NCBI GenBank assembly: GCA_043779265.1 | Contig: JAYWEM010000018.1 | Span: forward strand, 1-14,424 | Origin: a bacterium | GTDB lineage: Bacteria; Eisenbacteria; RBG-16-71-46 | Direction: 5' to 3' | Length of the DNA stretch: 14,424 nucleotides | Shown: one piece after another, positions 503 to 14,402 of the stretch | Position numbering within the stretch: position 1 is the first letter of the stretch | Layout: each line of letters starts with the position of its first letter | Position numbers and translations under genes: made by a program | The notes under the pieces: generated by a model | The model's database searches: none | Told to the model about the DNA's origin: nothing | What the model saw: the letters and a program-made list of their open reading frames with translations, nothing else

Positions 503-559
503 TCAGCGCCGGATCCACCACAGGAGATCCAGCAGGACCATCACTAAACCGACGTCCAC
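503..559 (-). CDS. Candidate 18-aa hydrophobic peptide MDVGLVMVLLDLLWWIRR
   Basis: GGGAGG (570-565) lies 5 nt before GTG at 559, with TGA at 505-503. Hydrophobic core followed by WW and a basic C-terminus. Too short for the ORF track. Confidence 0.5.
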   Translation of the reverse strand: MDVGLVMVLLDLLWWIRR

Positions 560-670
560 GGATTCCTCCCTATTGAGAGGGGCCCGCTTCGGCAGCGCGG
601 GGTCAACCGGACGGATTGTCGGCCGCCCGTGGGTTGGCTGCGCGGGCGGGGAAGCCGGCATGTTGTCGGC

Positions 671-3139
671 TCACCCCTTCATCTCGGCAGGTGGGGCCGC
701 GGACTTGAGTGCTGCATGACCTCCCGTGCGGAACGCGGGTCGTGACAACTGTTTGAGGACCACGACCGTGAGGTCGTCGAGCGGCTCGTCGGCATGCGCG
801 CGCACCGCCCGGAGCAGCGCCTCCAGGATGTCCCCGGCCCTGCGATGCCCGTGCCTGGCGAGCACGGCGCCGATCCCCTCGGTGCCGAACTGCTCGCCCT
901 CGCGCATCGCCTCGGTGAGTCCATCGGTGTAGAGCAGCACCACGTCGCCCGCCGCGAGTTCGAGGGTCGACGTCTCATAGCTGGCATCAGGCGAGACCCC
1001 GAGCAGGATCCCGCTCTCGGCGTGCTCCTCCAGTGTGCGGGCGGCGCGCCACACGATCGGCGGCGTCAGGCCGCCGTTGGCGAAACGCACGGTCGCGGTC
1101 GCGGCGTCGACTCGCGCGCACAGGAGTCCCATGAACTTGTCGGGCTGCTGAAGGGCGACGAGGTCGCGATTGAGTACTTCGAGCAGTTCGCCCGGATGGC
1201 GCGTGCGCGTGGCCTCATCGCGGAAGCGCGCCTGCACGCCGGCCATGACGAGCGCCGCCGCGACGCCGTGGCCCGCGGCATCGCCGACGGCGAGCACGAA
1301 CTCGCGTGGTCCGGTCTCGATCACATCGTAGTAGTCGCCACCGACCGCCTCGCTCGAGAGCGTCACGGCGGCGCAGTCGAGCGTCGGCAGCACGGGCAGT
1401 CGGCGCGGCAGACGATGCATCTGCACCACGTGCGCCTCGGCCAGTTCACGCTCGAAGGTTCCTCGATGCGTGCGCTCGCGGCGGAGTTCGATGTGCTCGA
1501 GTCCGACCGAGAGGCGATCGGCCAGCTGCCGCAGGTCGCGCACCTCGTGCACATCGATCCAGCCGCCGGTCAGCCGCCTCCCCAGGAGGATCACGGCCGC
1601 GTGAGGACCACCTGCCACCGGCACGAGCCAATGGACATTCGAACCTTCGAGCGCGTCGCGGTCCTCGTGCGCCAGATCGAGGTCGGCGAGCGCGATGGGG
1701 CCACTCGCGCGCTTCAGCGCATCGGCGAAGCCGGCCCCGAGCACCGGTGCTCGCCTCATTCCCGCGTGCGCCACCGCCTGTGTCGGGCCGAGCCGGAGCG
1801 CCGAGACCCCGTCGAGTCGCAGTGAAGTCATGATCGCCTCGCACGCCTCTTCCATCGCGAGTCGCGGATCGGCGCCGCGAGCGGCCTCGGGACTCGGCGC
1901 CCAGCCACTCAGGGCATGTTCGCCCGCGATCGGCACCATGCGCTCGCCGACCTGGCTGAGCCATGGCCGGGCGGGGCCCGCCAACGAGGCGACCAGCACG
2001 AGGAACGCGAGCGATGCCCCGGCGACTCCCTGACTCGCGCCGGGCAGCAGCGTCGGCGCCAGCGTCTCGCCCGCGATCGCGATGGCGAAGGCGAGTGCCC
2101 CTGCGATGGCGAGCGCCAACCCGGCCCGCAGCGCCACGCGGAAGTCGAAGACGCGGTGGACCGCGATCGCCCACGCGAACGAAGCGGGCATGAGCAGCGT
2201 GGCGACCACGGCCATGCGCTCGCCCGGCAACTGATCGTCGGTCGACAGGTTGCGAAGCGCGACCAGTACCGCGAACGGTGCGGCGCCGAGCAGCGTCCCG
2301 AGGAAGGCCACCCGCAGACGCCGCCTCGCATCGGCGCTCTTCGCACGCGCCAGGGCTCCCGCGAACAGCACGAGGCCGCCGAGGAAACCTGCGGCGAGCG
2401 TGAGTCCGGCCGCCGCGCTCAGCCACGGCCTCGCGACCAGCGCCAACTGCCCGGCACCGAACTCGTCCTCGAACAGCACGACGCCCCACGCGAGAAGCGA
2501 CAGTGCGCCCGCCGCATAGCAGGCTCGCACCCACACGCGAGCGCGTGGCCTGTCACCGGGCTCGGGGAACAGCGCGAAGAAATGCGAGAACAGCGCGGGG
2601 ATGAAGAGCTGGACGACGAGCAGCGAGAGTTGGTGCAGCGCTGCGGCAGCGCCGGTCAGCCGGGGCGGCGGCGCGAGCCATCCGGCGAAGCACAGGCTGA
2701 GCAGGAAGAACACGGCGGTCAGTCGGTCGCGACGCTCGCTCCACACCCAGCCACCCAGCAGGAGGAAGCCGCAGGCCACGGCGTACAGGAGGGACTTGAA
2801 GCGGCGTTCCTCGACCGGCAGCGGTTCGGGCGCGATCCAGACTTGCGAGCGCTCGGCCAGTCGCTCGCGCTCGAGCACCAGGGGCCGGCCAGGCGTGGCC
2901 ATGGCGAGCGGGCCCATCGAGAGCAGCCGGGTCCGCTCACCCGGGCGGTGCAGCAGGTCTCCGGGGCGCAGTCCGGCACGGGCCCCGGGGCTACCGGGCT
3001 CGATGGTGACGATTCGATCTCCCTGCAGCGTCAGGCCGGTCCAGCCGTGACGAGGCAGGCTCAGAGCCGAAAGCAGGAGTGCCGCCGTGGCGGGGACCAG
3101 AAGCCACGAGAGCGCTCGCATCTCACCGGGACGGCCCAT
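671..3139 (-). CDS. Membrane-bound PDZ + multi-TM + GAF-like + SpoIIE/RsbU-family PP2C serine phosphatase, 822 aa
   Basis: N-terminal hydrophobic segment, PDZ signature ([18 protein letters not shown]) and several TM helices. PP2C motifs [23 protein letters not shown] and DDLTVV are intact. SD GGAGGA precedes ATG 3139. Confidence 0.92.
681..708 (-). promoter_or_regulatory. sigma28 (FliA/SigD/WhiG)-type promoter inside the 3' end of the phosphatase gene
   Basis: TCAAGTCC-N12-GCCGAGAT (TCAA-N16-GCCGAGAT). Same -35 octamer and spacing as the csrA promoter. Confidence 0.65.
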
Positions 3140-3245: not shown

Positions 3246-3273
3246 TCAAGTCCTCTCGTGCATTGGCCGATAT
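3246..3273 (+). promoter_or_regulatory. sigma28-type promoter of csrA-flgM
   Basis: TCAA-N16-GCCGATAT, a near-consensus SigD/FliA promoter, 65 nt upstream of csrA. Confidence 0.85.
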
Positions 3274-3281
3274 GCACATCA

Positions 3282-3327
3282 CATGGATGCGGTGCTGCAT
3301 GGCTACTCTTGCTTCAGGGAGCGGAGG
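3282..3327 (+). promoter_or_regulatory. Putative CsrA-binding sites in the csrA leader
   Basis: CATGGATG (3282-3289) matches CANGGAUG. CAGGGA (3315-3320) abuts the SD GGAGG (3323-3327). Confidence 0.55.
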
Positions 3328-3338
3328 TCAGACCCACG

Positions 3339-3566
3339 ATGCTGGTCCTGACAAGGAAGTTGGGCGAGAACATCCGGATCGGAGACTCGGTGAAGATCAC
3401 CGTGTTGGAAGTCCGTTCGGGCCAGGTCAAACTGGGCATCGACGCTCCACCGGACGTGAAGGTGCACCGCGAGGAGATCTACGCGCGCATCCAGGAGGAG
3501 AATCGGCGAAGTGCCGCGGGCGGCAAGCCCCCGTCACCGCCGGATGCCTCCGCGGGTAAGCGCTGA
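3339..3566 (+). CDS. csrA: Carbon storage regulator CsrA, 75 aa
   Basis: [48 protein letters not shown] is the canonical CsrA sequence. Start at ATG 3339 after GGAGG. Confidence 0.97.
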
Positions 3567-3609
3567 CCGCACGGAGGTGGCGAGCCACCACCGGCGATCG
3601 CGAGGAGAC

Positions 3610-3816
3610 ATGCCGAGCCCAAGTCGCCGGAGCAACTCGAAGGGGAACCCGGATGCGAGCGTACCCGAGGTGAAGCCCGTTTCCGCGCAGGCGAAGATCC
3701 TCAACCTGTCCAAGATCGACGCCGTCCGCCGTCGCATCGCGAACGGCTACTACGATCGGGACGAGGTGCGCGACCGTCTCGCCCATGCCGTGCTCGAGGA
3801 GCTGCGCGAGGACTGA
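3610..3816 (+). CDS. flgM: FlgM-like anti-sigma28 factor, 68 aa
   Basis: Disordered N-terminus, then KIDAVRRRIANGYY-x(6)-DRLAHAVL, matching the FlgM C-terminal pattern (KVxxxKxxIxxGxY...IAxxLL). SD GAGGAG. Lies downstream of a sigma28 promoter. Confidence 0.75.
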   Translation: MPSPSRRSNSKGNPDASVPEVKPVSAQAKILNLSKIDAVRRRIANGYYDRDEVRDRLAHAVLEELRED

Positions 3817-3894
3817 GTGGAATCGGCGGCTACCCGCCTTCCCCCCGGACGTGCATAATGCTCTCGACTCGCGATGGACCGCGAGGACAAGCCC

Positions 3895-5097
3895 ATGCCC
3901 ACACGCCCCGCGCGCCGAGAAGGCGCATCCCCGCTCGCTGAGCTGGTCGACGCGCTCATGGAGGACGCGGCGACGGCTGTCCTCATCGTGGCGTCCGATG
4001 GCTCGCTCATCCGCCACAATGACGCGGCCCCCCGACTGTTCGGACTCTCGACCGCTGCGATGTCGCGCGCGACCGGGAGTGATCTGCTGCGGACGGTGGT
4101 GGCGGGCGAGGACCTGTTGGGCGATGCGCAGCGCGCCGTCCGCACCGAACGCGAGGCCGTGCTGGCGACTGCCAAGGCGGGCGACATCCCGGTGCGGGTG
4201 CGCAGCCACCGGCTGGGCGACCCGCCGATCGTGCTCGTCACCATCGAGGACATGACCCAGACGAGACGGACGCAGCAGGACCTGCGTCGGCATGAGCGGC
4301 TCGCCACGCTGGGCCAACTCTCGGCGGGTGTGGCGCACGAGATCCGCAATCCGCTCGCGGGCATCGGCACCAGTGCCCAGGTGCTGCTCCGACGATTCGA
4401 GGCCGGCGACGAGCGCGCCCGCTTCGTGCAGGTGATCCTCGATGAGGTGGCGCGGCTCGACCGCATCGTCTCGAGCCTGTTGCAGTACGCGCGGCCGCGC
4501 ACACCCGAACTGCGCCCCTCCTTGCTCGCGGACTGCGTGCAGCGCGTCGTCGCGCTCTCAGCCGAGATGACCATCAAGGCCGAGGTGCAGGTCGAGGTGG
4601 TCGCGGCGCCCAAGCTGGCGCACCTGTGGATCGACCCCGATCTGGTCCAGCAGGTCCTGCTCAACACCACGCTGAATGCCGTGCAGGCGATGCCCGAAGG
4701 TGGGACCCTGCGGATCGAAGTGCGCAAGGTGCGTCACAAGCGACCGCCGCGCGGCCCCGGGAGGCGAGCCGAGGATCTCTCGGGCGAGCGAGCGCGCGAC
4801 GAATCGGGATGGATCGAGTACCAGCAGATCCGCATCAGCGACACCGGCGTCGGCATCCCCAAGGGGGTGCTCGCCAAACTGTTCGATCCCTTCTTCACGA
4901 CCAAGGCCACGGGCACCGGGCTCGGGCTCAGCATCTCGCAGACCATCATGCAGGAGCACGGCGGTTCGATCGCCGTGGACAGCCGTGAGGGACGCGGGAC
5001 CACGGTGCTCATCGACTTCCCATTGGAGAAACGCCATGGATCGAGGCGACAGCGTGACACGAGCGGGGACGGCGCAGAGTCTGCTCATCGTCGATGA
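3895..5097 (+). CDS. Cytoplasmic PAS-domain histidine kinase (NtrB/FlrB/FleS-like), about 400 aa
   Basis: PAS-like N-terminus, H box AHEIRNPL, N box NAVQAM, DTGVGI, FDPFFTTK and GTGLGL. Start at 3895 (SD GAGGA) or 3874. Confidence 0.93.
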   Translation: MPTRPARREGASPLAELVDALMEDAATAVLIVASDGSLIRHNDAAPRLFGLSTAAMSRATGSDLLRTVVAGEDLLGDAQRAVRTEREAVLATAKAGDIPVRVRSHRLGDPPIVLVTIEDMTQTRRTQQDLRRHERLATLGQLSAGVAHEIRNPLAGIGTSAQVLLRRFEAGDERARFVQVILDEVARLDRIVSSLLQYARPRTPELRPSLLADCVQRVVALSAEMTIKAEVQVEVVAAPKLAHLWIDPDLVQQVLLNTTLNAVQAMPEGGTLRIEVRKVRHKRPPRGPGRRAEDLSGERARDESGWIEYQQIRISDTGVGIPKGVLAKLFDPFFTTKATGTGLGLSISQTIMQEHGGSIAVDSREGRGTTVLIDFPLEKRHGSRRQRDTSGDGAESAHRR

Positions 5098-6460
5098 CGA
5101 GCGCACGCTGCGCTTCTCGATCGGCGAATGGGCACGCGATCAGGGCTTCACACCCATCGAGGCCTCCACGGGTCGCGAGGCGCTCGAGGCGATGCGCGAG
5201 CAGAGCGTCGATGCGGTGCTGCTCGACCTGCGCCTTGGCGACGAGGACGGCATCAAGCTGCTGAAGCACCTGCGGGAGATCGACCCGACCGTGCCGGTCG
5301 TGATGCTCACCGGCCACGGCACCGTCGAGCACGCGGTGCGCGCCATCAAGATGGGCGCCTATGACTTCATGCTGAAGCCGCCGGACCTCGATCACCTGGC
5401 GGTGGTCCTCGAGCGCGCCATCGAGCATGGGCGGTTGAAGCAGGAGGTCTCCCACCTGCGGCAGCGCACCGCCCAGTCCCAGACGATCATCGGTGCCAGC
5501 GCGAGCCTGGCGCGCGTGTTGCAGCGCCTGGAGCGCGCAGCGCAGGCGCCGACCGCCACCGTGCTGATCCACGGCGAAACGGGGGCGGGCAAGGAGTTGA
5601 TGGCGCGCTATCTGCATGACCACTCCGCGCGCGCCGAGGGCCCGTTCGTCGAGCTGAACTGCTCGGCGATCCCGGAGTCGCTGCTCGAGAGCGAGCTCTA
5701 CGGTCACGAACGCGGCGCTTTCACGGACGCCAAGCGATTCAAGAAGGGTCTGTTCGAAGTCGCGGACGGCGGGACGTTGTTCCTCGATGAGATCGGGGAG
5801 ATGGCGCCTGCGCTGCAGGCCAAGCTCCTGCGCGTGCTCGAGACGCGGACGTTCCGCCGCGTCGGTGGACATGCCGACATCACCGTCGATGTCCGCGTGG
5901 TGGCGGCGACCCACCGGAACCTGCCGAAGATGGTGAGCGATGGCGGCTTTCGTGAGGATCTCTACTTCCGTCTCAATGTCGTCCCGATCGAGGTGCCGCC
6001 CTTGCGCGAGCGTCTCGATGACATCCCGGTGCTCGCTGAGCACTTCGTGCAGAAGCTGGCACGTGAACTGGGCCGCCCCGCCGTCCGGCTGACGCCCCAG
6101 GTGGTGGCCGCGCTGCAGAAGCACCGCTGGCCCGGCAACGTGCGTGAGCTGCGCAATGTGCTCGAGCGCGTCGTGCTGCTCGAGGCCGACGATGAGATCC
6201 TCGTCGAGCACCTGCCGCCCGAGTGGCTCGTCGGCTCGGCGAGCCCGCGTGCGGCTGCGGCGGGGGTCAGCTTCACGGGGCAGGAGGTGCGTCCGCTCGA
6301 GGAGATCGAACGCCTGGCCATCGAGCATGCACTCAGGCTCTGCGGCGGGAACAAGACCCGCGCCTCCGAGAAACTCGGGATCTCCCGCCAGACCCTGAGA
6401 ACGAAGCTCAAGGATCTCAAGCTGAGTGACGATGCAGAGGGGGAGTCGGACGAGGGCTGA
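5036..6460 (+). CDS. sigma54-dependent response regulator (REC-AAA+-Fis HTH; NtrC/FlrC/FleR family), 474 aa
   Basis: IVDD and LLDLRL receiver, Walker [39 protein letters not shown] and a C-terminal HTH. ATG 5036 follows GGAG and overlaps the kinase end by 62 nt. Confidence 0.96.
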
Positions 6461-6702
6461 CGCTGGCAGAAGTCGCACCACCCGGACCCCCGGGCTGGTG
6501 CAGGACTGAGCGGCCGGGCGCCTCGCGCCCGGCCGTCGGTGTGTCCGGGCAGCCCCCCCCTGAGGCGGCGCCCGAGGCCCGGGGCGATTGCCACGATGAC
6601 CGCCAAGTGATGATTCCCGAGTGACCTAACGCGCCAGACGCTTCGATTCGGAGCCGGTGGGCGGGTCCTCGAAGGCCCCCTCGACAGGGGCGGGTTCTGC
6701 CG

Positions 6703-6718
6703 TGGCATGCGGACTGCA
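6703..6718 (+). promoter_or_regulatory. sigma54 (-24/-12) promoter
   Basis: TGGCATGCGGACTGCA = GG-N10-GC with near-consensus flanks. It sits 19 nt before ATG 6738, at the end of a ~280-nt intergenic region with room for enhancer sites. Confidence 0.75.
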
Positions 6719-6737
6719 AGACAAGCAGGACGAACGC

Positions 6738-7172
6738 ATGACGCCGTCCTCCCCAGAGCCACCGGAGCCCACACCGATGCCGCATCTCCTGATCGTGGAA
6801 GACGAGGCGAGCACCTCGTGGGCACTGGCCGAGGGCCTCTCGGATGACGGCTATACGATCGACACCTTCCGCACCGCCGAGGAAGCGCAGCGCTGGCTGC
6901 GCCGCGGCACGAGCGACCTGATCATCTCCGACCTGCGGCTGCCCGGGATCTCGGGCCTCGAGTTCGCGCAGAAGCTCTCGCGCGGTCGTCACGCCCAGCC
7001 GGTCATCCTCGTCTCGGCCTACTCGCTCGATGGCCAGAGCGAGGAGCTGAACGCAGCCGGCATCGTGGATGTGTTCTCGAAGCCCTTCCAGATCGACGCG
7101 CTCCGCCGCTCGGTGCGCCGCGCGCTGCTCACCGCGACGCCGCGCCGGGTCCCGGCACGGAGGGCCGCGTGA
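6738..7172 (+). CDS. Single-domain response regulator (CheY-like receiver), 144 aa
   Basis: LLIVED, ISDLRLPGISG, VSAY and FSKPF all intact. ATG 6738 follows AGGA (alternative ATG at 6777). Confidence 0.92.
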   Translation: MTPSSPEPPEPTPMPHLLIVEDEASTSWALAEGLSDDGYTIDTFRTAEEAQRWLRRGTSDLIISDLRLPGISGLEFAQKLSRGRHAQPVILVSAYSLDGQSEELNAAGIVDVFSKPFQIDALRRSVRRALLTATPRRVPARRAA

Positions 7173-7408
7173 ACCGCCGTCTGCCGGATGCCGTTCGCGC
7201 ACTCCCCGAGGCGGTGCGTGCCTCGGCCGCGATCGAGACGCTGACGCCGCGCGAGCGCTCGGTCCTGGCACTCATGCTGATCGAGGGTCTCTCCCCGGTC
7301 GAAGTCGCCGGCGCGCTCGGTACGTCCGCCCGTCAGATCGAGCGTCTCTACAGCGCGGCGCTCGGTTCGGTCTCACGTGAGATGCACGGCGTCCGGAGGG
7401 CGGCATGA
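7169..7408 (+). CDS. Stand-alone sigma70 region-4 (HTH) protein, 79 aa
   Basis: IETLTPRERSVLALMLIEGLSPVEVAGALGTS aligns by eye with the FliA region 4 in this window (IDQLPEQERLVVALYYYEHMTLKEIGRTLGIS). GGAGG SD and GTGA coupling. Confidence 0.8.
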   Translation: MNRRLPDAVRALPEAVRASAAIETLTPRERSVLALMLIEGLSPVEVAGALGTSARQIERLYSAALGSVSREMHGVRRAA

Positions 7409-7638
7409 GCTGGAGCGCCCCGATGACGCCCGCGGCGGATGTCCGTCGTCCGATGCCCGGAACGCTCCAGGAGCGTCTCGCCGCGGCGGATCGTGCGGTC
7501 GCCTCGCTCGTCATCGAGCAGCAGCTGGCCGAGGCCCTGCACGCCGAGGTGCCGCAGGCACGCTGCCACCACCAGCTCCGCTACTGGCGCTTCGTCCGCA
7601 ACGTCCTGGCCGCGAGCAGCGGGGAGGTGCGGGCGTGA
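7405..7638 (+). CDS. Hypothetical helical protein, 77 aa
   Basis: ATGA overlap upstream, GTGA overlap downstream, GGAGG SD, high-GC3 codon usage. No family recognised. Confidence 0.7.
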   Translation: MSWSAPMTPAADVRRPMPGTLQERLAAADRAVASLVIEQQLAEALHAEVPQARCHHQLRYWRFVRNVLAASSGEVRA

Positions 7639-8531
7639 ATCCGTCCGAGCCGAACATGCGCGTGGTCGCCGGTGGTGAGGGCGAGGCCGTGCTCGGCGCT
7701 GGTCATGCCGCCGAGATGAGCCGTCCGCGCACGCGCACCATCGTCATCGCGAGTGGCAAGGGCGAGGTGGGCAAGTCGAACCTCTGCGCGAATCTGGCGC
7801 TGGCGCTGGCCGAGCGTGGCGCTCGCGTCCTGCTCGTCGATGGCGATCTGGCGCAGGCGAACCTCGACCTGATCCTCGGCGTGCATCCGCGCTGGGACAT
7901 CTCGGATGTCCTGAAGAACGAGCGCACGCTCGACGAGGTGCTGGTCTCGGTCGCGCGCGGCGTGCAGTTGGTGCCGGCCGCCTCGGGCGCCCCGGAACTG
8001 GCCGAACTCGACGACATGCGTCGCGAGACGTTCCTGCGCACGATCGGCTCAGTCGATCCGGCGCCGGATCTGGTGCTCATCGACACGGCCTCGGGTGCTT
8101 CGCGTCAGACCACGGCGCTGTGCCGCGCCGGGCACGAGACGATCGTCGTGACGACGCCCGAGATGCCCGCCTTCTCGGAGGCCTACGCCCTGGTCAAGCT
8201 GCTGCATCAGCAGGGCCTGGCGCAGGCCCCGCGCGTCGTCGTCAGCATGGCCAACTCCGACGAGGAGGCCCAGGAGACGTCGCACCATCTTCGTCTGGTC
8301 GCGCGCCGGTTCCTCCGCATCGAGCTCGAGTGCCTGGGGGTCATCCCGTATGACGCCTCGGTGCCGCGTGCGATGCGGCAGCAGGAGCCCGTGCTGAGCG
8401 CGTTCCCCGATTCTGCCGCGGCACGTGCGTATCGCGCACTGGCCGCGCGTTGCTGGAAGGGCCCGTCGTCGGGGCCGCAGGAAGCTGTCGCCACGAAGTC
8501 CGAGATGAAGCCCCAACGTCTCGTCGCCTAG
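7635..8531 (+). CDS. flhG: FlhG/FleN-like MinD/ParA ATPase, 298 aa
   Basis: IASGKGEVGKSN, VLLVDGDLAQANLDLILG, LVPAASG, VLIDTASG and VVTTPE. Directly upstream of fliA. GTG 7635 follows GGAGG. Confidence 0.85.
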   Translation: MNPSEPNMRVVAGGEGEAVLGAGHAAEMSRPRTRTIVIASGKGEVGKSNLCANLALALAERGARVLLVDGDLAQANLDLILGVHPRWDISDVLKNERTLDEVLVSVARGVQLVPAASGAPELAELDDMRRETFLRTIGSVDPAPDLVLIDTASGASRQTTALCRAGHETIVVTTPEMPAFSEAYALVKLLHQQGLAQAPRVVVSMANSDEEAQETSHHLRLVARRFLRIELECLGVIPYDASVPRAMRQQEPVLSAFPDSAAARAYRALAARCWKGPSSGPQEAVATKSEMKPQRLVA

Positions 8532-8542
8532 GAGGTCACCCC

Positions 8543-9415
8543 ATGCCCCGTGCCGCTTCGCTCCCCGCCCGTCGCACCGCCAGCAAGACCGCCGCGCCCG
8601 CCCGTCGTCCTGAACTGAAGGTCGTCGCGGGCCGCAAGCCCGCTGCGGCGCCGATCGCATCGGTCGCCGTCGCGGATGCACCGACCCCGGTGACGTACGA
8701 CAAGAACAACCTCCTCAAGCGATTCGCGCCGCTCGTGCGGCATGTCGTCGAGCGCGTCGCGGCGACCCTGCCGCGCAACGTCGATCATGAGGACCTCTAT
8801 TCGGCAGGTGTGCTCGGGCTGCTCGACGCGCATGCGAAGTTCGACACGGGTAAGGGCGTCAAGTTCGAGACCTACGCCGTGTGGCGCATCAAGGGTGCCG
8901 TTCTGGACCAGCTGCGGGCGCTCGACTGGGCTTCGCGTTCGATGCGTCGCAAGGCGCGCAACCTCGACGGTGTGACGCGCAAGCTCGATCAGAAGCTGGG
9001 ACGGGCCGCTTCCGAGGAGGAGGTCGCGCGCGAGCTGAAGATGTCGCGCGAGGACTTCTATCGTCTACTGGATCATGTGCGCGGCGCGGTGCTCGTCTCG
9101 CTCGACGAGTCGCGCACGCAGGACGGCGACGACCAGGGTTCGCTCTCGGATCATCTGGCCGACCCGAGCGCCCCGGATCTGGAGGAGCGCCTCGAGACCG
9201 AGCAGGAGCGCCATCTGATGATGGGTGTCATCGACCAGCTGCCCGAGCAGGAGCGGCTCGTCGTCGCCCTCTACTACTACGAGCACATGACGCTCAAGGA
9301 GATCGGCCGCACGCTGGGGATCTCCGAGTCACGTGTCTCCCAGGTCCACACACGGGCCATGTCCCGCCTGCGCCTTCGCATGAACAAGGCGATGTCCCTG
9401 GATGAGGCCGCGTGA
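8543..9415 (+). CDS. fliA: RNA polymerase sigma factor FliA/WhiG family (sigma28), 290 aa
   Basis: EDLYSAGVLGLLDA, KFETYAVWRIKGAVLDQLRALDW and LKEIGRTLGISESRVSQVH. ATG 8543 follows AGGAGG. Confidence 0.95.
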   Translation: MPRAASLPARRTASKTAAPARRPELKVVAGRKPAAAPIASVAVADAPTPVTYDKNNLLKRFAPLVRHVVERVAATLPRNVDHEDLYSAGVLGLLDAHAKFDTGKGVKFETYAVWRIKGAVLDQLRALDWASRSMRRKARNLDGVTRKLDQKLGRAASEEEVARELKMSREDFYRLLDHVRGAVLVSLDESRTQDGDDQGSLSDHLADPSAPDLEERLETEQERHLMMGVIDQLPEQERLVVALYYYEHMTLKEIGRTLGISESRVSQVHTRAMSRLRLRMNKAMSLDEAA

Positions 9416-9807
9416 GCGAAACGCCGCCCTCGTCCTCCTCATCACCACCTTGGACGGTCCTGCACGCGAAGGTCTCCGAACTGACCGATCGATGCGCCGC
9501 TCGAGGTGAAGCCGTGGCGGTCGAGGAACTCCGAACACTGTTGGACGATTGGTGGATCACGCAGCAGGCCTGGGATCGACAGGCTGCCGAGACGCTCGAA
9601 GCGCATCACGACATCAACAATGCACTCGTGGGAGTGCGCGGCAACGCGCAACTCCTGATGAAGAACCCCGTCGCGCAGGCACCCGTGGTGCGCGATCGTC
9701 TGGAGGTCATGCTCCGTGAGTCCAGCCGGATCCAGGAAGCGGCAGGACGGCTCCGCACCCTCCGTGCGAGCCTCGGTGGCTCGGTTCCCCACAACCGCGC
9801 GGCCTGA
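9412..9807 (+). CDS. Stand-alone HisKA/DHp-like protein without ATP-binding domain, 131 aa
   Basis: HHDINNALVGVRGNAQLL...RDRLEVMLRESSRIQE is a DHp helical hairpin. GTGA-coupled to fliA. Confidence 0.8.
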   Translation: MSETPPSSSSSPPWTVLHAKVSELTDRCAARGEAVAVEELRTLLDDWWITQQAWDRQAAETLEAHHDINNALVGVRGNAQLLMKNPVAQAPVVRDRLEVMLRESSRIQEAAGRLRTLRASLGGSVPHNRAA

Positions 9808-10771
9808 GGGCGGGGCGCCCGAAGCGGCGCCCACACCTCGTGGCCGGCGTGCCGATGGGGGAAGCGGCACCGAATCGCCCGCGCGCACCGATCGCCGTGA
9901 GGCGGCAGGTTCGCTGTGGGCTGCGTGCGAGGCGCTGCTCAGCGCGTCGCACGACCGTGAGGCGCTCCCGCGTGCACTCGACCAGCTCATCGAGGCGTTC
10001 GGATGTGCCGGTGTGGCGTTGCACGCGGTGGGTGCGAGCGGACAGCTCGAGCCTTGGTGTGCACGCGGCGAGTGGCAGGAGGAGCCGGGCGATCTCCGGC
10101 CGTGCATGGGTGTTCCGCTGTTCCATGGCCGCGAGCGCGTCGGCGCCCTCGATCTGAGGGGGCATCGCCAGCAGCGCTGGAAGCCCGAGCAGCACTCGCT
10201 CGTCCGCACCGCGGCGGGGGCTCTCGGAGCGGCGATGTCCGCACGTCTCGAACTCGAGCGGCTACGCCGCCAGCCGGGTCGCGACAGCAAGACGGGTCTC
10301 GCGGATTCGACGTCGTTCCACGGCCGACTCCTCGAGGAGGTCGGGCGCGCCGAGCGCATGGGCACGCCCGTCGCGGTCGTGAGTCTCGATCTCGATCACT
10401 TCGAAGGTGTGAACTCGAAGTACGGCGCCGATACCGGGGACGCCGTGCTCGCCGAGTGTGCGCTCGTCCTCAAGGTGGCGCTGCGCGATGGTGACTTCCT
10501 GGCCCGGCTGTCGGGTGATGAGTTCGGCGTGATCCTGCCGGACTGCGACCTCGCCCCGGCTCGCCGGCTCGCCGAGCGTCTCCGGCACGCGATCGAGTCG
10601 CATCGGTTCGCGCGCGTCGGGAATCTGAGTTGTTCCGCGGGAGTGGCCGCCGCGCCACGTGATGGGCTGGATGCCACCGAATTGCTATCCGCGGCCGAGC
10701 AGGCACTGGGTCTCGCCAAGAAGGCGGGACGTCGGCGCACGGCAGCTGCAGGTCCGAAGCACACCCACTAG
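9716..10771 (+). CDS. GAF-like + GGDEF-domain protein, degenerate (SGDEF), I-site intact
   Basis: DSKTGL, DLDHF, RDGD-x5-SGDEF, SAGVA and AKKAGR. Start uncertain (GTG 9716 with GGAGG, or 9764/9776). Confidence 0.88.
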   Translation: MSPAGSRKRQDGSAPSVRASVARFPTTARPEGGAPEAAPTPRGRRADGGSGTESPARTDRREAAGSLWAACEALLSASHDREALPRALDQLIEAFGCAGVALHAVGASGQLEPWCARGEWQEEPGDLRPCMGVPLFHGRERVGALDLRGHRQQRWKPEQHSLVRTAAGALGAAMSARLELERLRRQPGRDSKTGLADSTSFHGRLLEEVGRAERMGTPVAVVSLDLDHFEGVNSKYGADTGDAVLAECALVLKVALRDGDFLARLSGDEFGVILPDCDLAPARRLAERLRHAIESHRFARVGNLSCSAGVAAAPRDGLDATELLSAAEQALGLAKKAGRRRTAAAGPKHTH

Positions 10772-10789
10772 TCCCAGCTCGAGGCTCCC

Positions 10790-12514
10790 TTGTCCGAACC
10801 CGCGCACCTGTCGTCGGATTCCCCCGCATTGACCCCGCAGCCGGCTCGCGTGCTCGTCGTCGAAGACGACGAGACGGTGGCGGACGTGCTGCGCGAGGCG
10901 CTTGCCGACGCGCGATTCTCGTTGGAGTTCGCCGTCGACGCCGAGTCGGCCGTGCGCTCGATCGACGAGCGTCCGCCGGATCTCGTGCTCACGGACATCA
11001 GCCTTCCCGGCCGCTCCGGCTTGGACGTGATGCGGCACGTGCGGGGTCGCGACCCCGAAGCCGCGGTCATCCTGATGACCGGCTACGCCACGACGCAGAA
11101 CGCGATCGACGCCCTTCGCGAGGGCGCGTGCGAGTTCATCACCAAGCCATTCGACGACATCGCCAAGCTCCCCGACATCCTCGAGAAGCATCTCGGGAAT
11201 CGCCGTCTGCGACTGCAGAACACCGCGCTCATGAGCGAACTGCGGGAGAAGAACACCGTCCTCGAGCACCACGAGCAGGAACTGCGCGAGCGCGTCGAGT
11301 TGGCCACAAGGCAGATGGCGACGCTCTATCGCGTCGCGATGGAGATCGGCACCGATCTCGGACTGGCGCCCAGGCTCGACCGGATCAACAAGGTCGCCAT
11401 GCAGCAGGCGGGTGCGAACGGTTCGGGCGTCTGGCTGTTGCACGAGGAGAGTGGCGAGTTCGCGCTCATCTCGCATGCCGGTGCCGAGCGCGCCGAAGGC
11501 GAGGAGGAGGCGCATCGATTCGCGTCCGGCGCCGGACCGCTGGGTGCCACGGTGCAGACTCGAACGCCCATGCGACACGCGACGTGCGAGTCGCTTCCCG
11601 GCCTGATCGTCCGGCGCGAGACCACGCTGATGGTCGTGCCGTTCGTCCAGGGCGATACCTGCTTCGGCGTGATCGCGGTGTGGGGGAAGCTCGGGGGGTT
11701 CACGGCCGACGACCAGGAGTTCCTCTCCCTGTTCGCCTCGCAGGCCGCGGTCCAGATCCGCAACTCGCAGTTGTTCGAGCACACCAAGAGCCTCGACCGT
11801 CTCAAGTCCGATTTCGTCGCCGTCGTCTCGCATGAGATCCGAACGCCGCTCACGTCGGTCAAGGGCGCGGTGGAACTGCTGTCCGACGATCGTTATTTCC
11901 AGAACAACGACCAGCAGGGCAAGCTCCTCACGATCGCGCATGCCAACGCCGAGCGCCTGCTCCTGCTCATCAACGACATCCTCGACTTCAGCAAGCTCGA
12001 GTCGGCCTCGCTGTTCATGACCATCGAGCGTCAGCGACTCGAACCCGTCGTCATGCAGGCGAGCCAGAATCTCCGCACGCTCATCGAGGAACGCCGCATC
12101 CGCGTCGACTTCGAACTGAGCGAGGAACTGCCGGATGTCCTACTGGATGCGCACCGCATCACGCAGGTCGTCACCAATCTGCTCTCCAACGCGATCAAGT
12201 TCTCGCCGAGTGATGGCGCGATCGAACTTCGGGTGCGTGAGGCGGATGGCATGGTCCGAGTCGAGGTGACCGATCGGGGCGAGGGCATCGCGCCGCGCGA
12301 CCTGCCCAAGCTGTTCCGCAAGTTCCAGCAGGTGGACTCCAGTTCGACTCGCAAGGTGGGTGGTACCGGTCTCGGACTCGTCATCAGCAAGGGCATCGTC
12401 GAGCAGCACGGCGGCACGATCGGAGTCGAGAGCGAGTTGGGTGAGGGCAGCACGTTCTGGTTCACGCTGCCGGTCGCCGAACGGACGGCGGGGGAGAGCG
12501 CACTGCGCGCTTGA
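10790..12514 (+). CDS. Hybrid histidine kinase REC-coiled coil-GAF-HisKA-HATPase, 574 aa
   Basis: VVEDD, LTDISLPG and ITKPF receiver, GAF (FTADDQEFLSLFASQAA), SHEIRTPL, NLLSNAIKF, DRGEGI and GGTGLGL. TTG start after GAGG. Confidence 0.94.
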   Translation: MSEPAHLSSDSPALTPQPARVLVVEDDETVADVLREALADARFSLEFAVDAESAVRSIDERPPDLVLTDISLPGRSGLDVMRHVRGRDPEAAVILMTGYATTQNAIDALREGACEFITKPFDDIAKLPDILEKHLGNRRLRLQNTALMSELREKNTVLEHHEQELRERVELATRQMATLYRVAMEIGTDLGLAPRLDRINKVAMQQAGANGSGVWLLHEESGEFALISHAGAERAEGEEEAHRFASGAGPLGATVQTRTPMRHATCESLPGLIVRRETTLMVVPFVQGDTCFGVIAVWGKLGGFTADDQEFLSLFASQAAVQIRNSQLFEHTKSLDRLKSDFVAVVSHEIRTPLTSVKGAVELLSDDRYFQNNDQQGKLLTIAHANAERLLLLINDILDFSKLESASLFMTIERQRLEPVVMQASQNLRTLIEERRIRVDFELSEELPDVLLDAHRITQVVTNLLSNAIKFSPSDGAIELRVREADGMVRVEVTDRGEGIAPRDLPKLFRKFQQVDSSSTRKVGGTGLGLVISKGIVEQHGGTIGVESELGEGSTFWFTLPVAERTAGESALRA

Positions 12515-12623: not shown

Positions 12624-14402
12624 ATGCGCGCCATGGATGACGCCGCTTCGCAGTCCCGTGCTGTTCCCGATCGTTCCGCCCGGATCGCCCTGCTGCTCGT
12701 GGGAGCGTTGGCCGGTGCGATTCTCGCGATCGGGCTTGCGCCCCGCTCACTCGCACGTTTCGAAGTGCGTCTGCCGTGGGCCGGTGCATCGCTGACCGCA
12801 GCCGACTGGCCACGCGATCCGCTGCCTGGCGAAGAGGCGATCGTCCGAGTCGGTGCGAACGGCATGGAACTCGTCGTCCGCGCCCCCGAGGCCGCGATGG
12901 CCGAGGCGCTCGCACGGGAGATCTCCGCGCAGCAGGTCAGCGCGCTTCCTCTGTTGCGCGAGATCGAGGTCGAACTGCGCGCGGCGTGGCGCCTCTCGGT
13001 TCCACACGGGCCCTCGCTGCCGATGACGCGCGAGAGCGAGGTCGCGGCGCTGCTCCTGGGTGAGGCCGCGCTGCGCCGCGATCTCGCGCTGCAGTTGCCC
13101 GGTCCCTACGCGGCGGCCCCGGCCGAGCATCTCGCGGTCCCGAGCCTCGCCGTGCTCGAGCGTCAGCAGGAGCTCTCGCTGGCGATTCCCGCCGCCGATC
13201 CCGATCGCATCGAACAGTTGCTGATCACGGCCGCAGCCGATGAGTCCGACTGGCTCGCCGCCAGTGGCGTGGCCGGCAGCTCCGCGAGCGAGCGCGGCTC
13301 GGCGTGGCGTCGCTGGCAGCTGGCGCGAGCCGATTCGCTCAGCGTCATCGCCGAGCGATTGCTCGAGAGCGAGACGGCGTTGCAGCAGTCGCTCGCCGCG
13401 TGGGCGATGCCCGCTCAGCGCTCCGCGCTGGGCGAGACCCGTCGCTCGTCCTATCTCGCGCTCGCGCGTGCACAGGTGCCGCCCACGGTCCCCGGCGCCG
13501 GTCCGATCGCAGGCGTCTGGGCGATGGTGATCGGCATCGGCGCGCTGACCGGTGCCGCTGCGGCCAGCTTCGGCGGGTGGGTCGCGCGTCGCGGCCGCAA
13601 TCGTGGCGCAAAGGCATCGCCGACCGCGTTCCCCGGCCGTGATCCGGGAGCGACGGAAGCGTGGCTGCACGTCGTCACCGGACCCGATCGCACGTCGATC
13701 GCGCGCGCCGTCCTCGAACTCGCCTCACACACGCTGGCGAGGGGAGAGCGCGCCCTCATCATCGACGCGAGCACGCGCCTCGCCCTGCACGAACGGCTCG
13801 GCCGCGAGGCGCGCTGGGGCCTGATGGAGTGCCTGCACTGCGACATGCCGGTTCTGGGACTGGTGCAGTACGGTGGATGGCCGGGGCTCTATCTGCTCGC
13901 CCATGGCGAGACCAAGCGGGCCTCGGCGGGCTGGTCAGGGCTCGGCCGGCGGTTGGATGAAGCGAAGCCGCACTTCGGGCGGATCCTGTTCTGCGTCGAC
14001 CAGGCGGCGCCGCGCGAGCTGGGGGAGGCGCTGATGGGTCGGCCGCTGGAGGGCTGGTGGGCCGAGTCCGGGGAGCGCCTGCCGAGGCAGGCGGACGAGC
14101 TCCCGGGCCGACTCGGTATCGCATTCTCCTGCATCGACATGCGCCACTTCCCGGAGGTCACGCTCGAACGGCTCGGGGAGCGCGCCGCAGCGCTGGCGCC
14201 GAGCATCCAGGTCGAACCGGCACCAGTCGTGACCCCGGCGCCGATTCCTCCGGCCGAGGTGGCCGTGGAGATCCCGGTGATCCCGGAGGGTCCGGTCGTG
14301 TTGGACTGCGACTTGCAAGTCCAGCAGCGACTGCGGTTCCTGGCGTGGATGCGCCGGGTCCAGTCCGAGAGCCGCCGCGAGGAACTCGAACCGGTCGCCT
14401 GA
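12624..14402 (+). CDS. Wzc/GumC-like membrane protein with degenerate P-loop (BY-kinase/MinD-like) C-terminal domain, about 590 aa
   Basis: Two TM segments flank a long helical region. Then LHVVTGPDRTS, LASHTLARGERALIIDAS, GLMECL, PGLYLLAHG and HFGRILFCVD follow the CpsD/Wzc motif order without catalytic residues. Start at 12624 or 12633. Confidence 0.65.
   Translation: MRAMDDAASQSRAVPDRSARIALLLVGALAGAILAIGLAPRSLARFEVRLPWAGASLTAADWPRDPLPGEEAIVRVGANGMELVVRAPEAAMAEALAREISAQQVSALPLLREIEVELRAAWRLSVPHGPSLPMTRESEVAALLLGEAALRRDLALQLPGPYAAAPAEHLAVPSLAVLERQQELSLAIPAADPDRIEQLLITAAADESDWLAASGVAGSSASERGSAWRRWQLARADSLSVIAERLLESETALQQSLAAWAMPAQRSALGETRRSSYLALARAQVPPTVPGAGPIAGVWAMVIGIGALTGAAAASFGGWVARRGRNRGAKASPTAFPGRDPGATEAWLHVVTGPDRTSIARAVLELASHTLARGERALIIDASTRLALHERLGREARWGLMECLHCDMPVLGLVQYGGWPGLYLLAHGETKRASAGWSGLGRRLDEAKPHFGRILFCVDQAAPRELGEALMGRPLEGWWAESGERLPRQADELPGRLGIAFSCIDMRHFPEVTLERLGERAAALAPSIQVEPAPVVTPAPIPPAEVAVEIPVIPEGPVVLDCDLQVQQRLRFLAWMRRVQSESRREELEPVA

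Follow-up and report, generated by a model that had tools for sequence, protein, structure and literature searches.

A flagellar control circuit that has probably outlived its flagellum in the Eisenbacteria

A block of ~9.2 kb on contig JAYWEM010000018.1 of an uncultured member of the phylum Eisenbacteria (assembly GCA_043779265.1; the window analysed here is the whole contig, C18, 14,424 nucleotides) encodes the regulators of a flagellum, namely a sensor kinase with a sigma54 activator, FlhG, the sigma factor FliA (sigma28), an FlgM-like anti-sigma factor and CsrA. We conclude, with a probability of about 0.8, that this cassette is an ancestral flagellar control circuit that has outlived its flagellum and now switches signalling genes, and that a second flagellar cluster of the same genome, on contig C1, was imported.

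Results

The cassette is collinear with an intact flagellar supercluster

All genomes compared are metagenome bins, coded by family from f1 to f18 within the phylum set. The bin that holds the window (G000; 3.43 Mb, 195 contigs, 92% complete, 68% GC) belongs to f1. In G025, from family f2 of the same order, the same locus holds a flagellar supercluster of ~67 kb, bounded by trpA/mglA on one side and by valS on the other. It runs from flgF, G, A, H, I, J, N, K and L through fliW, csrA, glycosyltransferase genes, fliC, fliS, fliD and flaG to flgM, which is followed by genes for an HDOD protein, a PP2C phosphatase, an anti-sigma kinase, a STAS protein, a HEAT protein, the kinase HK1 and the activator, then by a sigma54 site and a receiver gene, and it ends with cheR, cheY, a gene for a stand-alone sigma region 4 (sigma4-only), a fleS/fleR-like pair, flgB to flhA, flhF, flhG, fliA, HDOD and GGDEF genes and the kinase HK2. 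This order is also present in f7, f10 and f13, and in pieces in f16; as judged from these loci, five families still carry the intact supercluster here. By its gene order the cassette is a collinear subset, the regulatory skeleton, of the 67-kb supercluster ancestral to the phylum.

Structural relics stand in ancestral position in non-flagellated lineages: fliW-csrA-flgM in f9 (fliW also in f10), flgN-fliW-csrA-decayed flagellin-flgM in G078, and fliN-fliO-flhG-fliA-HDOD in f18. A subset comprising HK1, activator, receiver and fliA is kept in f11, f14, f17, f4 and f5. Among the 172 genomes of at least 80% completeness, a FliA match (E<=1e-35) was found in 165 and flhA over its cut-off in 59; among the 125 of at least 90% completeness, Flagellin_N was found in 50, and 74 of the 75 without it have a FliA match, the miss being G126 (these tallies count G026 as one row). 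On a FliA tree (IQ-TREE; 55 rows, 30 of 85 having been dropped to thin near-relatives) the native flagellum switches between presence and absence 6 times, starred branches forcing at least 5 of these changes, and the non-flagellated G069, G078 and G088 are starred sisters of the flagellated G067, G077 and G087. Such counts give no direction, gain or loss; we favour losses because of the relics, the canonical gene order and the tree of the native, type-A FlhA (FastTree), which follows the families.

Several of these loci are of interest in themselves. In G078, where flhA was not found, the decayed flagellin-like gene (L098:4156-4908) lies by flgN-fliW-csrA and may represent an intermediate stage of loss. 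In f18, flagellin was found in 0 of 26 genomes, and fliN-like and fliO-like genes lie under a sigma28 site before flhG-fliA (G173, L085:9646-12675), preceded by a conserved 51-residue open reading frame (ORF) of no family. Family f3 has a second fliW-csrA pair apart from the cassette (L278, G028:C115), though flhA was not found. In f7 (G048, G050 and G045; L148, L149 and L150) a second gene of the FHIPEP family forms its own clade with no flagellar neighbours detected, and possibly belongs to a non-flagellar type III system.

The cassette is conserved and its decay matches the loss of partners

Thirty matching loci of f1 and f3 were compared, ten of them short contigs that span only part of the block. 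The order csrA-flgM-HK1-activator-receiver-sigma4-only-orf77-flhG-fliA-HisKA-GGDEF-HK2 recurs in both families (Table 1).

Table 1. Coordinates of the cassette, its promoters and the adjoining divergent unit in the window.
Feature	Position	Strand	Basis or remark
18-codon hydrophobic ORF ending D-x-x-W-W-x-x-R-stop	503..559	-	GGAGG ribosome site
Structured 5' leader, two hairpins and possible pseudoknot	604..672	-	seen in f1 only
SpoIIE-PDZ membrane phosphatase (PP2C/RsbU-like)	671..3139	-	Pfam SpoIIE 150 bits; divergent from csrA
Putative sigma28-type promoter of leader and small ORF	681..708	-	TCAAG-N15-GCCGAGAT; end of PP2C gene; same position in relatives
Putative sigma28-type promoter of csrA-flgM	3246..3273	+	TCAAG-N15-GCCGANAT
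csrA	3339..3566	+	Pfam CsrA 91.8 bits; NCBIfam csrA over cut-off
FlgM-like anti-sigma factor, 68 residues, C-terminal part only	3610..3816	+	alignment with G025/G027 FlgM
Sigma70-like -10 element ahead of HK1	3854..3859	+	CATAAT
HK1, cytoplasmic PAS-HisKA-HATPase sensor kinase	3874..5097	+	same position in intact clusters
Receiver-AAA+-Fis sigma54 activator	5036..6460	+	Walker A intact, GAFTDA loop
Putative sigma54 -24/-12 promoter	6703..6718	+	TGGCA-N7-TGCA; heads receiver-sigma4-only-orf77-flhG-fliA operon
Stand-alone receiver domain	6777..7172 (start maybe 6738)	+	Pfam Response_reg 77 bits
Sigma4-only, stand-alone sigma28-derived region 4	7169..7408	+	best PDB matches FliA/WhiG
orf77, conserved helical protein	7405..7638	+	in 25 of 30 loci
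FlhG/FleN-type MinD ATPase	7635..8531	+	after flhF in intact clusters
fliA (FliA1, sigma28)	8543..9415	+	TIGR02479 251 bits against cut-off of 189.6; Pfam regions 2, 3 and 4
HisKA-only protein, conserved His	9412..9807	+	Pfam HisKA 26.4 bits, just below cut-off; H[DE][IV]NN motif
GAF-GGDEF protein	9716..10771 (start uncertain)	+	domain matches
HK2, receiver-GAF-HisKA-HATPase kinase	10790..12514	+	right end of ancestral cluster

The strict sigma28 motif, TCAAG-N15-GCCGANAT, occurs at 3246 (+) and 708 (-), with 0 matches in 300 Markov-resampled windows. It lies 80-90 bases upstream of csrA in 17 of 21 loci, the remaining 4 having near matches. The looser sigma54 pattern is expected 0.16 times per window by chance, and we take the site at 6703 as real because it is conserved, 28 of 29 loci having it upstream of the receiver gene. 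A -10 element of the TA(T/G)ACT type precedes HK1 in 11 of the 12 f1/f3 loci examined. Domain matches and this conservation confirm the kinase, the activator, the sigma54 motif and both sigma28 motifs that an earlier, sequence-only reading of the window had pointed out, and its remark on missing structural neighbours holds, none having been found in the window or in any of the 30 loci. We do not share its view that small unfamiliar genes had replaced lost neighbours, since the receiver and sigma4-only genes are already there in flagellated relatives, nor that the switch is self-contained, rpoN and the targets lying elsewhere in the genome.

The promoter at 3246 was probably inherited from a flgN-flgK-flgL-fliW-csrA operon; G025 has TCAAG-N14-GCCGATAC upstream of flgN. 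The PDZ-SpoIIE gene borders the intact cluster of G077 as well as the remnants in f1, f3, f9, f10 and f13, a position by which it is an ancestral flank of the flagellar cluster. No flhF lies beside flhG in the window, and the orthologous intact clusters have a MinD-type ATPase between flhF and fliA. The HisKA-only protein is a possible phosphotransfer protein, and orf77 matched no family in Pfam, NCBIfam or the protein atlas. The FlhG of the window reads GKGEVGKS where all relatives read, same genus included, have GKGGVGK(S/T), either a private allele or an assembly error. Beyond HK2, a gene at 12624-14402 (+) for a membrane protein of 592 residues that matches nothing in Pfam or NCBIfam is conserved in f1 and is followed in relatives by an epimerase-like gene.

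Open frames and gene order are kept over the 30 loci, with ~50-90% identity for the larger genes. The ratio of nonsynonymous to synonymous change (dN/dS) was 0.03-0.43 for HK1, the activator, FlhG, FliA, GGDEF and HK2 in 8 genome pairs without flhA, as estimated by a simple counting method at high GC (the set includes G031, where one contig end carries a fragment of flagellin, 44 residues long). By these measures the core genes are under purifying selection and the cassette is real and functional.

What has decayed fits the loss of partners. The FlgM of f1 and f3 has 63-79 residues against 106-107 in the flagellated f2 (G025/G027), the N-terminal segment being missing. The FlgM of the window has no Pfam match; 8 of 19 aligned homologues match Pfam FlgM (best 1.5e-6), the sole PDB match of its profile is a FlgM (weak, E 0.069), its nearest atlas cluster is mostly from Ca. 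Eiseniibacteriota, and its orthologue lies between fliD and HK1 in intact clusters. FliW was absent from all 46 f1 genomes searched and from G000, and present in 5 of 6 f3 genomes (one of them G026). The C-terminal helix of CsrA, which in the accessible text of a recent study is the part that binds FliW (PMC13443453), is degenerate in f1, where a low-complexity tail replaces it, and kept in f2, f3, f9 and f10, so that the tail is lost where FliW is lost. The same accessible text predicts that few Eisenbacteria CsrAs repress flagellin mRNA (PMC13443453), and by gene content a CsrA-FliW-flagellin switch is not found in f1 or G000. Control of flgM by CsrA through a GGA in the csrA-flgM spacer was discarded, this GGA not being conserved. 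On contigs C49 (4565-4743, +) and C89 (2150-2300, +) of G000, intergenic CACGGA repeats, some in hairpin loops, are candidate CsrA-binding RNAs in a family without FliW; no sigma28 motif lies nearby. The active site of the GAF-GGDEF protein reads SGDEF in the window and GGDAF, GSDTF and similar in most of f1, with RxxD kept, and is intact in natively flagellated genomes; the protein is likely to be a receptor for cyclic di-GMP (c-di-GMP) rather than an active diguanylate cyclase.

The flagellar cluster on C1 has a separate history

The genome of the window is not devoid of flagellar genes, and a description of it as lacking flagella had to be dropped. Its flhA lies in a near-complete cluster of 33 kb (C1:50352-83716; L032, L033) with genes for FlaF, FlbT, two short flagellins, FlgL, a sigma54 activator, FliE-R, FlhB, FlhF, a second FlhG, a second FliA (FliA2), FlgC, FlgD-J, FlgN and its own FlgM (flgM2); motAB are on C107. 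FlgK was not found in G000, where the contig ends in flgN, and was found in G003, G022 and G011, relatives that share the C1-type cluster. FliD, FliS and FliW were not found with G025 query sequences, so that calling the C1 cluster complete is unsupported.

FliA2 is 38% identical to the FliA of the cassette, FliA1, and groups with Gemmatimonadales FliA at 100/99 support (IQ-TREE); the gene order of the C1 cluster is common with that Gemmatimonadales locus, and FlhA is 63% identical. The tree of this type-B FlhA mixes f1, f9, f14 and f15, families in which the cluster is patchy (flhA in 22 of 70 f1 genomes), and the type-A structural genes cognate to the cassette are absent from G000. With its own regulators and its separate history, the C1 cluster is by these comparisons not cognate to the cassette, and its flagellum would be a later import that brought its own FliA2. 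One further set of flagellar genes, on G103:C70 (L102), has 56% GC against 68-75% in f1 loci and is likely to be bin contamination or a third acquisition; G103, whose FlhA is distinct and groups apart, was left out of the counts.

The sequence-only reading had held that a complete flagellar set elsewhere, with flagellin under the same sigma28 motif, would speak against it. What we found goes half of that way: one C1 flagellin has a related motif upstream, TCAAG-N14-GCCGAGAC, in a near-complete cluster with its own FliA and FlgM. Upstream of flgM2 and flgL stands TCAAG-N15-TCCGATAC, and fliL has a sigma54 site. FliA1 and FliA2 share the residues that read the -35 and -10 elements, and some cross-reading of C1 promoters by FliA1 is likely. 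That the cassette holds the C1 flagellum under partial control is possible, at somewhat less than even odds; C1 has an activator, flhF-flhG-fliA2 and flgM2 of its own.

Putative FliA1-type promoters precede signalling genes

A promoter matrix built from 16 csrA promoters gave 139 matches in G000, 64 of them intergenic although intergenic sequence is 8.5% of the DNA, and most lie 35-150 bases before a gene. Spacer counts in G000 peak at N15 (12; next 3). Of the 79 variable-spacer matches in four f1 genomes that lack flhA, 61 were N15, reversed controls giving 11; G080 (f15) and G158 (f18) also peak at N15.

Following 56 of these 61 N15 sites gave the shared targets: csrA, a PAS hybrid kinase (5 genomes including G000), a HEAT and HD operon (4), a TPR-DUF4388 pair (4) and a DUF6982 gene (3), together with mglA, a single receiver and a DUF11-type protein. 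The HD partner in the HEAT operon has an HD motif and a GYP-type motif. A TCAAG-N15-GCCGATA-type site stands upstream of this operon in 27 of the 30 loci tested, 14 of the 17 non-flagellated ones among them, and on the opposite strand in 1 of the 30; the HEAT and receiver orthologue tests leave out the G026 locus. The mglA site was present in 5 f1 and 3 f15 loci among the 11 examined, and not in G025 or two f11 loci. The receiver protein (C58:45774-46166) is unusually conserved, 58 of 61 phylum genomes having it at 61-93% identity. Other sites precede secreted or envelope genes (DUF11, a glycosyltransferase operon, a beta-barrel protein). On C1 (37273-42438; L246), a weaker sigma28-like site heads an operon of genes for an FHA protein, a HEAT-Ser/Thr kinase and two PilT-like ATPases. 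Pilin-motif genes number 9 in G000, beside 12 PilT/PilB-like ATPase matches; that sigma28 controls the pilins directly was rejected, only 1 of the 9 pilin genes having a site, and that a weak one.

In natively flagellated genomes, sites precede not only fliC, flgN and fliL but a pilC-like gene, GAF kinases and HK2 as well; since these genomes have non-flagellar sites too, the non-flagellar arm appears to predate the losses. Upstream of fliC, TAAAG-N14/15-GCCGA was found in the flagellated G025, G064, G067 and G048, and the strict fliC pattern was unmatched in the stretches of G077, G041 and G087. A second class, N14-KCCGAGAC (a pattern taken from G000), has 71 sites in the 18 f1 genomes with C1-type flhA against 19 in the 28 without; one genus supplies 41 of the 71 and kin are not independent. 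Two genomes that have a second FliA match account for 8 of the 19, and controls gave 14 in 47. A rule by which N14 marks imported and N15 native promoters fails, native fliC promoters being N14 or N15 and two C1 promoters N15.

Taken together, these motifs suggest a three-tiered circuit. The ancestral supercluster would have lost its export, basal-body, motor, hook and filament genes, and the cassette would have remained. Sigma70 would transcribe HK1 and the sigma54 activator, which once phosphorylated would open the promoter at 6703, a link drawn from adjacency, to give the receiver, sigma4-only, orf77, FlhG and FliA1. FleN is the anti-activator of FleQ, and FlhG would probably act likewise on the sigma54 activator. 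FliA1 would then read TCAAG-N15-GCCGATA before csrA-flgM, giving negative feedback, before the small membrane-peptide gene described below and before some 15-40 scattered genes, of which the HEAT and HD-GYP-like operon, the polarity GTPase gene mglA, the PAS hybrid kinase, the TPR-DUF4388 pair and DUF6982 are the conserved ones. The circuit would have survived because part of its non-flagellar arm was already present in flagellated ancestors.

We give about an even chance to the proposal that the output is a state of low c-di-GMP, surface-motile or dispersing, in a cell with type IV pili. The same origin could also serve a state of development or stress, be it a resting cell or a remodelled envelope, as WhiG and chlamydial sigma28 do, a reading that concerns the output only and is compatible with the rest: many sites lie before secreted or envelope genes, and the PP2C, receiver and sigma4-only genes recall stress partner switches. 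We find it doubtful, the best-conserved targets being mglA, HD-GYP-like and kinase genes; the targets examined include no conserved operon for spores, storage or polysaccharide. The development or surface polysaccharide first suggested for the window accordingly gave way to signalling, c-di-GMP-turnover-like and polarity genes.

A leader and a small peptide gene form a putative sigma28 unit

The sequence-only reading had placed a candidate RNA under the sigma28 motif at 708 (-). The motif proved real, and the unit behind it is mRNA-like, a leader followed by a small ORF. In the leader alignment 92.4% of cells are paired, 5 of 22 pairs show compensatory change and 0 of 500 shuffles reach the covariation score, a control that descent in related sequences can beat, the structure having been read off the same sequences; the pseudoknot helix is invariant, so covariation is silent on it. 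No Rfam family matched at E<=1. The small ORF is conserved with synonymous variation in 12 aligned loci, and a pattern back-translated from the peptide end matched 64 of 125 genomes, just once in 63 of these (reversed control 0); the matches span flagellated and non-flagellated families, and none was found in f15, f17 or f18. Its product is most likely a small inner-membrane regulator of 18 residues under translational control. A CsrB-like sponge was discarded, as the GGA loop is not invariant and the unit encodes a peptide, and so was a trp attenuator, as trpA is convergent and on the other strand in relatives.

FlgM would have to be released without export

Most FlgM carriers lack a detectable flhA and the N-terminal part of FlgM is missing; on this gene content FlgM cannot leave through the hook-basal body in most carriers. 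The gene for sigma4-only, which holds region 4 alone in a separate ORF not fused to the receiver, is present in the flagellated f2, f7 and f10 and the non-flagellated f1, f3, f4, f5, f9 and f10, and was not detected in f11, f13, f14, f15, f17 and f18. Its profile finds FliA/WhiG region 4 as best PDB matches (1e-13 to 1e-11). The recognition helix SESRVSQ, exact in 65 of 85 FliA rows, is not kept. A predicted FlgM/sigma4-only complex scored 0.54 against 0.00 for the best control, with runs agreeing on at least 80% of contacts and a partner pLDDT (predicted local distance difference test) of at least 71; this mark is attained by 116 of the 157 solved pairs and by 2 of the 215 mismatched ones, and at 0.60 or below there are only 18 solved pairs and both mismatches. 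The prediction hints at a complex, and may show likeness to solved FlgM-sigma28 structures only.

Of the conceivable routes of release, a sigma54-driven pulse of FliA that outruns FlgM, together with proteolysis, is one we hold tentatively, at less than even odds; titration of FlgM onto sigma4-only seems rather doubtful, and a PP2C/STAS partner switch unlikely (G000 has 4 STAS and 12 PP2C matches). It would also be a long shot, if perhaps a slightly shorter one, that the whole amounts to a phylum-wide lifestyle switch, in which a sigma4-only decoy from the same sigma54 operon would pull FlgM off FliA in place of the export checkpoint, the freed sigma would drive MglA polarity, c-di-GMP turnover and the leader-controlled 18-residue membrane peptide, and the N15-GCCGATA code would be kept distinct from the N14-GCCGAGAC of the re-imported sigma28.

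Weighing the origin of the cassette

Several observations weigh against an ancestral circuit that has outlived its flagellum. G000 has a near-complete flagellar cluster, whose flgM2 and flgL promoters differ from the FliA1 motif by one base; support for FliA1 as one clade is weak (86/43); in metagenome bins absence means not found; and every promoter call rests on a sequence motif. No N15 peak was seen in G055, G078 or G092, and the regulon is shown for f1, f15 and f18 only. The receiver target on C58 has its site in just 12 of 29 loci (control 0), and no sigma28 site precedes 8 of the 9 pilin genes, which makes the pilus link indirect. The locus yielded no FlgM in f11, f14, f15 and f18, and f13 and f17 have FlgM without a detected sigma4-only gene, which counts against the decoy as a general device. 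FlgM (dN/dS 0.48-0.81) and sigma4-only (0.23-0.94) evolve fast, on 60-100 codons. Exaptation beyond motility, as first proposed, is nevertheless borne out by retention in nearly all flagellin-less genomes, by purifying selection and by a non-flagellar regulon, and is qualified by the flagellar cluster of G000 itself.

If the cassette simply regulated the C1 flagellum, as one half of an ordinary split flagellar regulon, the structural genes and motAB of G000, the promoters of flgM2, flgL and fliL and the shared reading residues would be accounted for. As its sole function this is already contradicted, and we consider it very unlikely: C1 carries its own regulators, the N14-KCCGAGAC class tracks C1-type flhA, and the cassette is intact in relatives in which neither flhA nor flagellin was found, such as G016 (99% complete, 10 contigs), G012 and G004. 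Still less probable is an ancestral non-flagellar unit into which flagellar genes were inserted in several families. State-change counts are blind to gain and loss, non-flagellated families are the majority, and the HisKA-only gene is common to f1, f3 and f4 and was not seen in f2; yet such a history needs identical multi-block insertions at at least 4 points in at least 5 lineages, and it meets flhA-flhF-flhG-fliA and fliW-csrA in canonical order, relics in ancestral position and a type-A FlhA tree that follows families. A decaying vestige without present function, to which the short FlgM, the degenerate GGDEF, the lost CsrA tail, the altered FlhG P-loop and the fast-evolving small genes might point, is hardly credible with frames and order kept across 30 loci, a core of low dN/dS, and conserved promoters and remote target sites.

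Discussion

In polar flagellates a FleQ/FleN-FleSR-FliA/FlgM hierarchy runs from sigma70 to sigma54 to sigma28 with a MinD-type partner. The Eisenbacteria cassette has the same tiers and partner, with fleSR in intact relatives; it differs in a top activator with a cognate kinase, in having no export checkpoint in its reduced form and in the loss of flhF. Release of a sigma factor independent of export is known from PhyR-NepR, where a protein binds the anti-sigma factor through sigma-like regions 2 and 4 fused to a receiver. The cassette likewise has a receiver adjoining a sigma-like domain that lacks DNA-reading residues, although its candidate decoy is a separate, unfused, sigma28-derived region 4 without region 2. 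In Pseudomonas, according to the accessible text, the HsbR-HsbA-FlgM partner switch frees sigma by protein binding to the anti-sigma factor, independently of export (PMC6482189); a PP2C gene beside the cassette and a PP2C/anti-sigma/STAS trio by flgM in G025 recall it, but the cassette has no STAS gene.

That flagellar regulators are kept without flagella is already known from Legionella. The accessible part of a review describes non-flagellated species that keep fliA, flgM and variously fleQ, fleN and fleSR: fliA-flgM in L. oakridgensis, fliA, fleN and fleSR in L. longbeachae, and fleQ, fleN, fliA and flgM in L. israelensis (PMC5655016). There, as here, regulators outlast repeated loss of the flagellum, flgM is sigma28-dependent and FlgM is removed without export, degradation being suggested (PMC5655016). 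Legionella, however, offers few species with scattered genes, the Eisenbacteria most of a phylum with one collinear operon skeleton, to which a kinase, an activator, CsrA, GGDEF, extra small proteins and, in some, a second imported flagellum are peculiar. In the accessible part of one survey, FliA matches occur in 41% of non-motile genomes.

Akin to the cassette, actinobacterial WhiG1/WhiG2 are described, in the text available, as co-opted sigma28 factors with targets that include c-di-GMP enzymes and type IV pili, two paralogues per genome; RsiG together with c-di-GMP restrains WhiG2, there is no FlgM, and that text describes no sigma54 tier (PMC12871210). The Eisenbacteria retain both FlgM and the sigma54 tier, and there the copy that left the flagellum is the ancestral sigma28. 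In Chlamydia, sigma54 (CtcB/CtcC) and sigma28 also serve non-flagellar late genes, but the accessible account gives two targets each, independent control, no cascade and unclustered genes (PMC12282069). Our literature search, with subscription papers mostly outside its scope and supplements excluded, returned nothing on this Eisenbacteria cassette or on a stand-alone region-4 decoy for FlgM. What appears new is that the pattern spans a phylum and follows one collinear skeleton, together with a re-imported second flagellum, the candidate decoy and the peptide unit.

The Eisenbacteria would offer a repeated natural experiment, on the scale of a phylum, in which a regulatory hierarchy outlives the machine it built, and one locus displays intact, half-reduced and fully reduced states as well as the secondary acquisition of a foreign flagellum. 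How FlgM is lifted without export, a question posed in the accessible text of the Legionella review (PMC5655016), becomes testable here, with sigma4-only as a candidate. The study also yields an unannotated conserved peptide and its leader RNA. In these uncultured bacteria, finally, fliA, flgM, flhG and csrA do not predict swimming.

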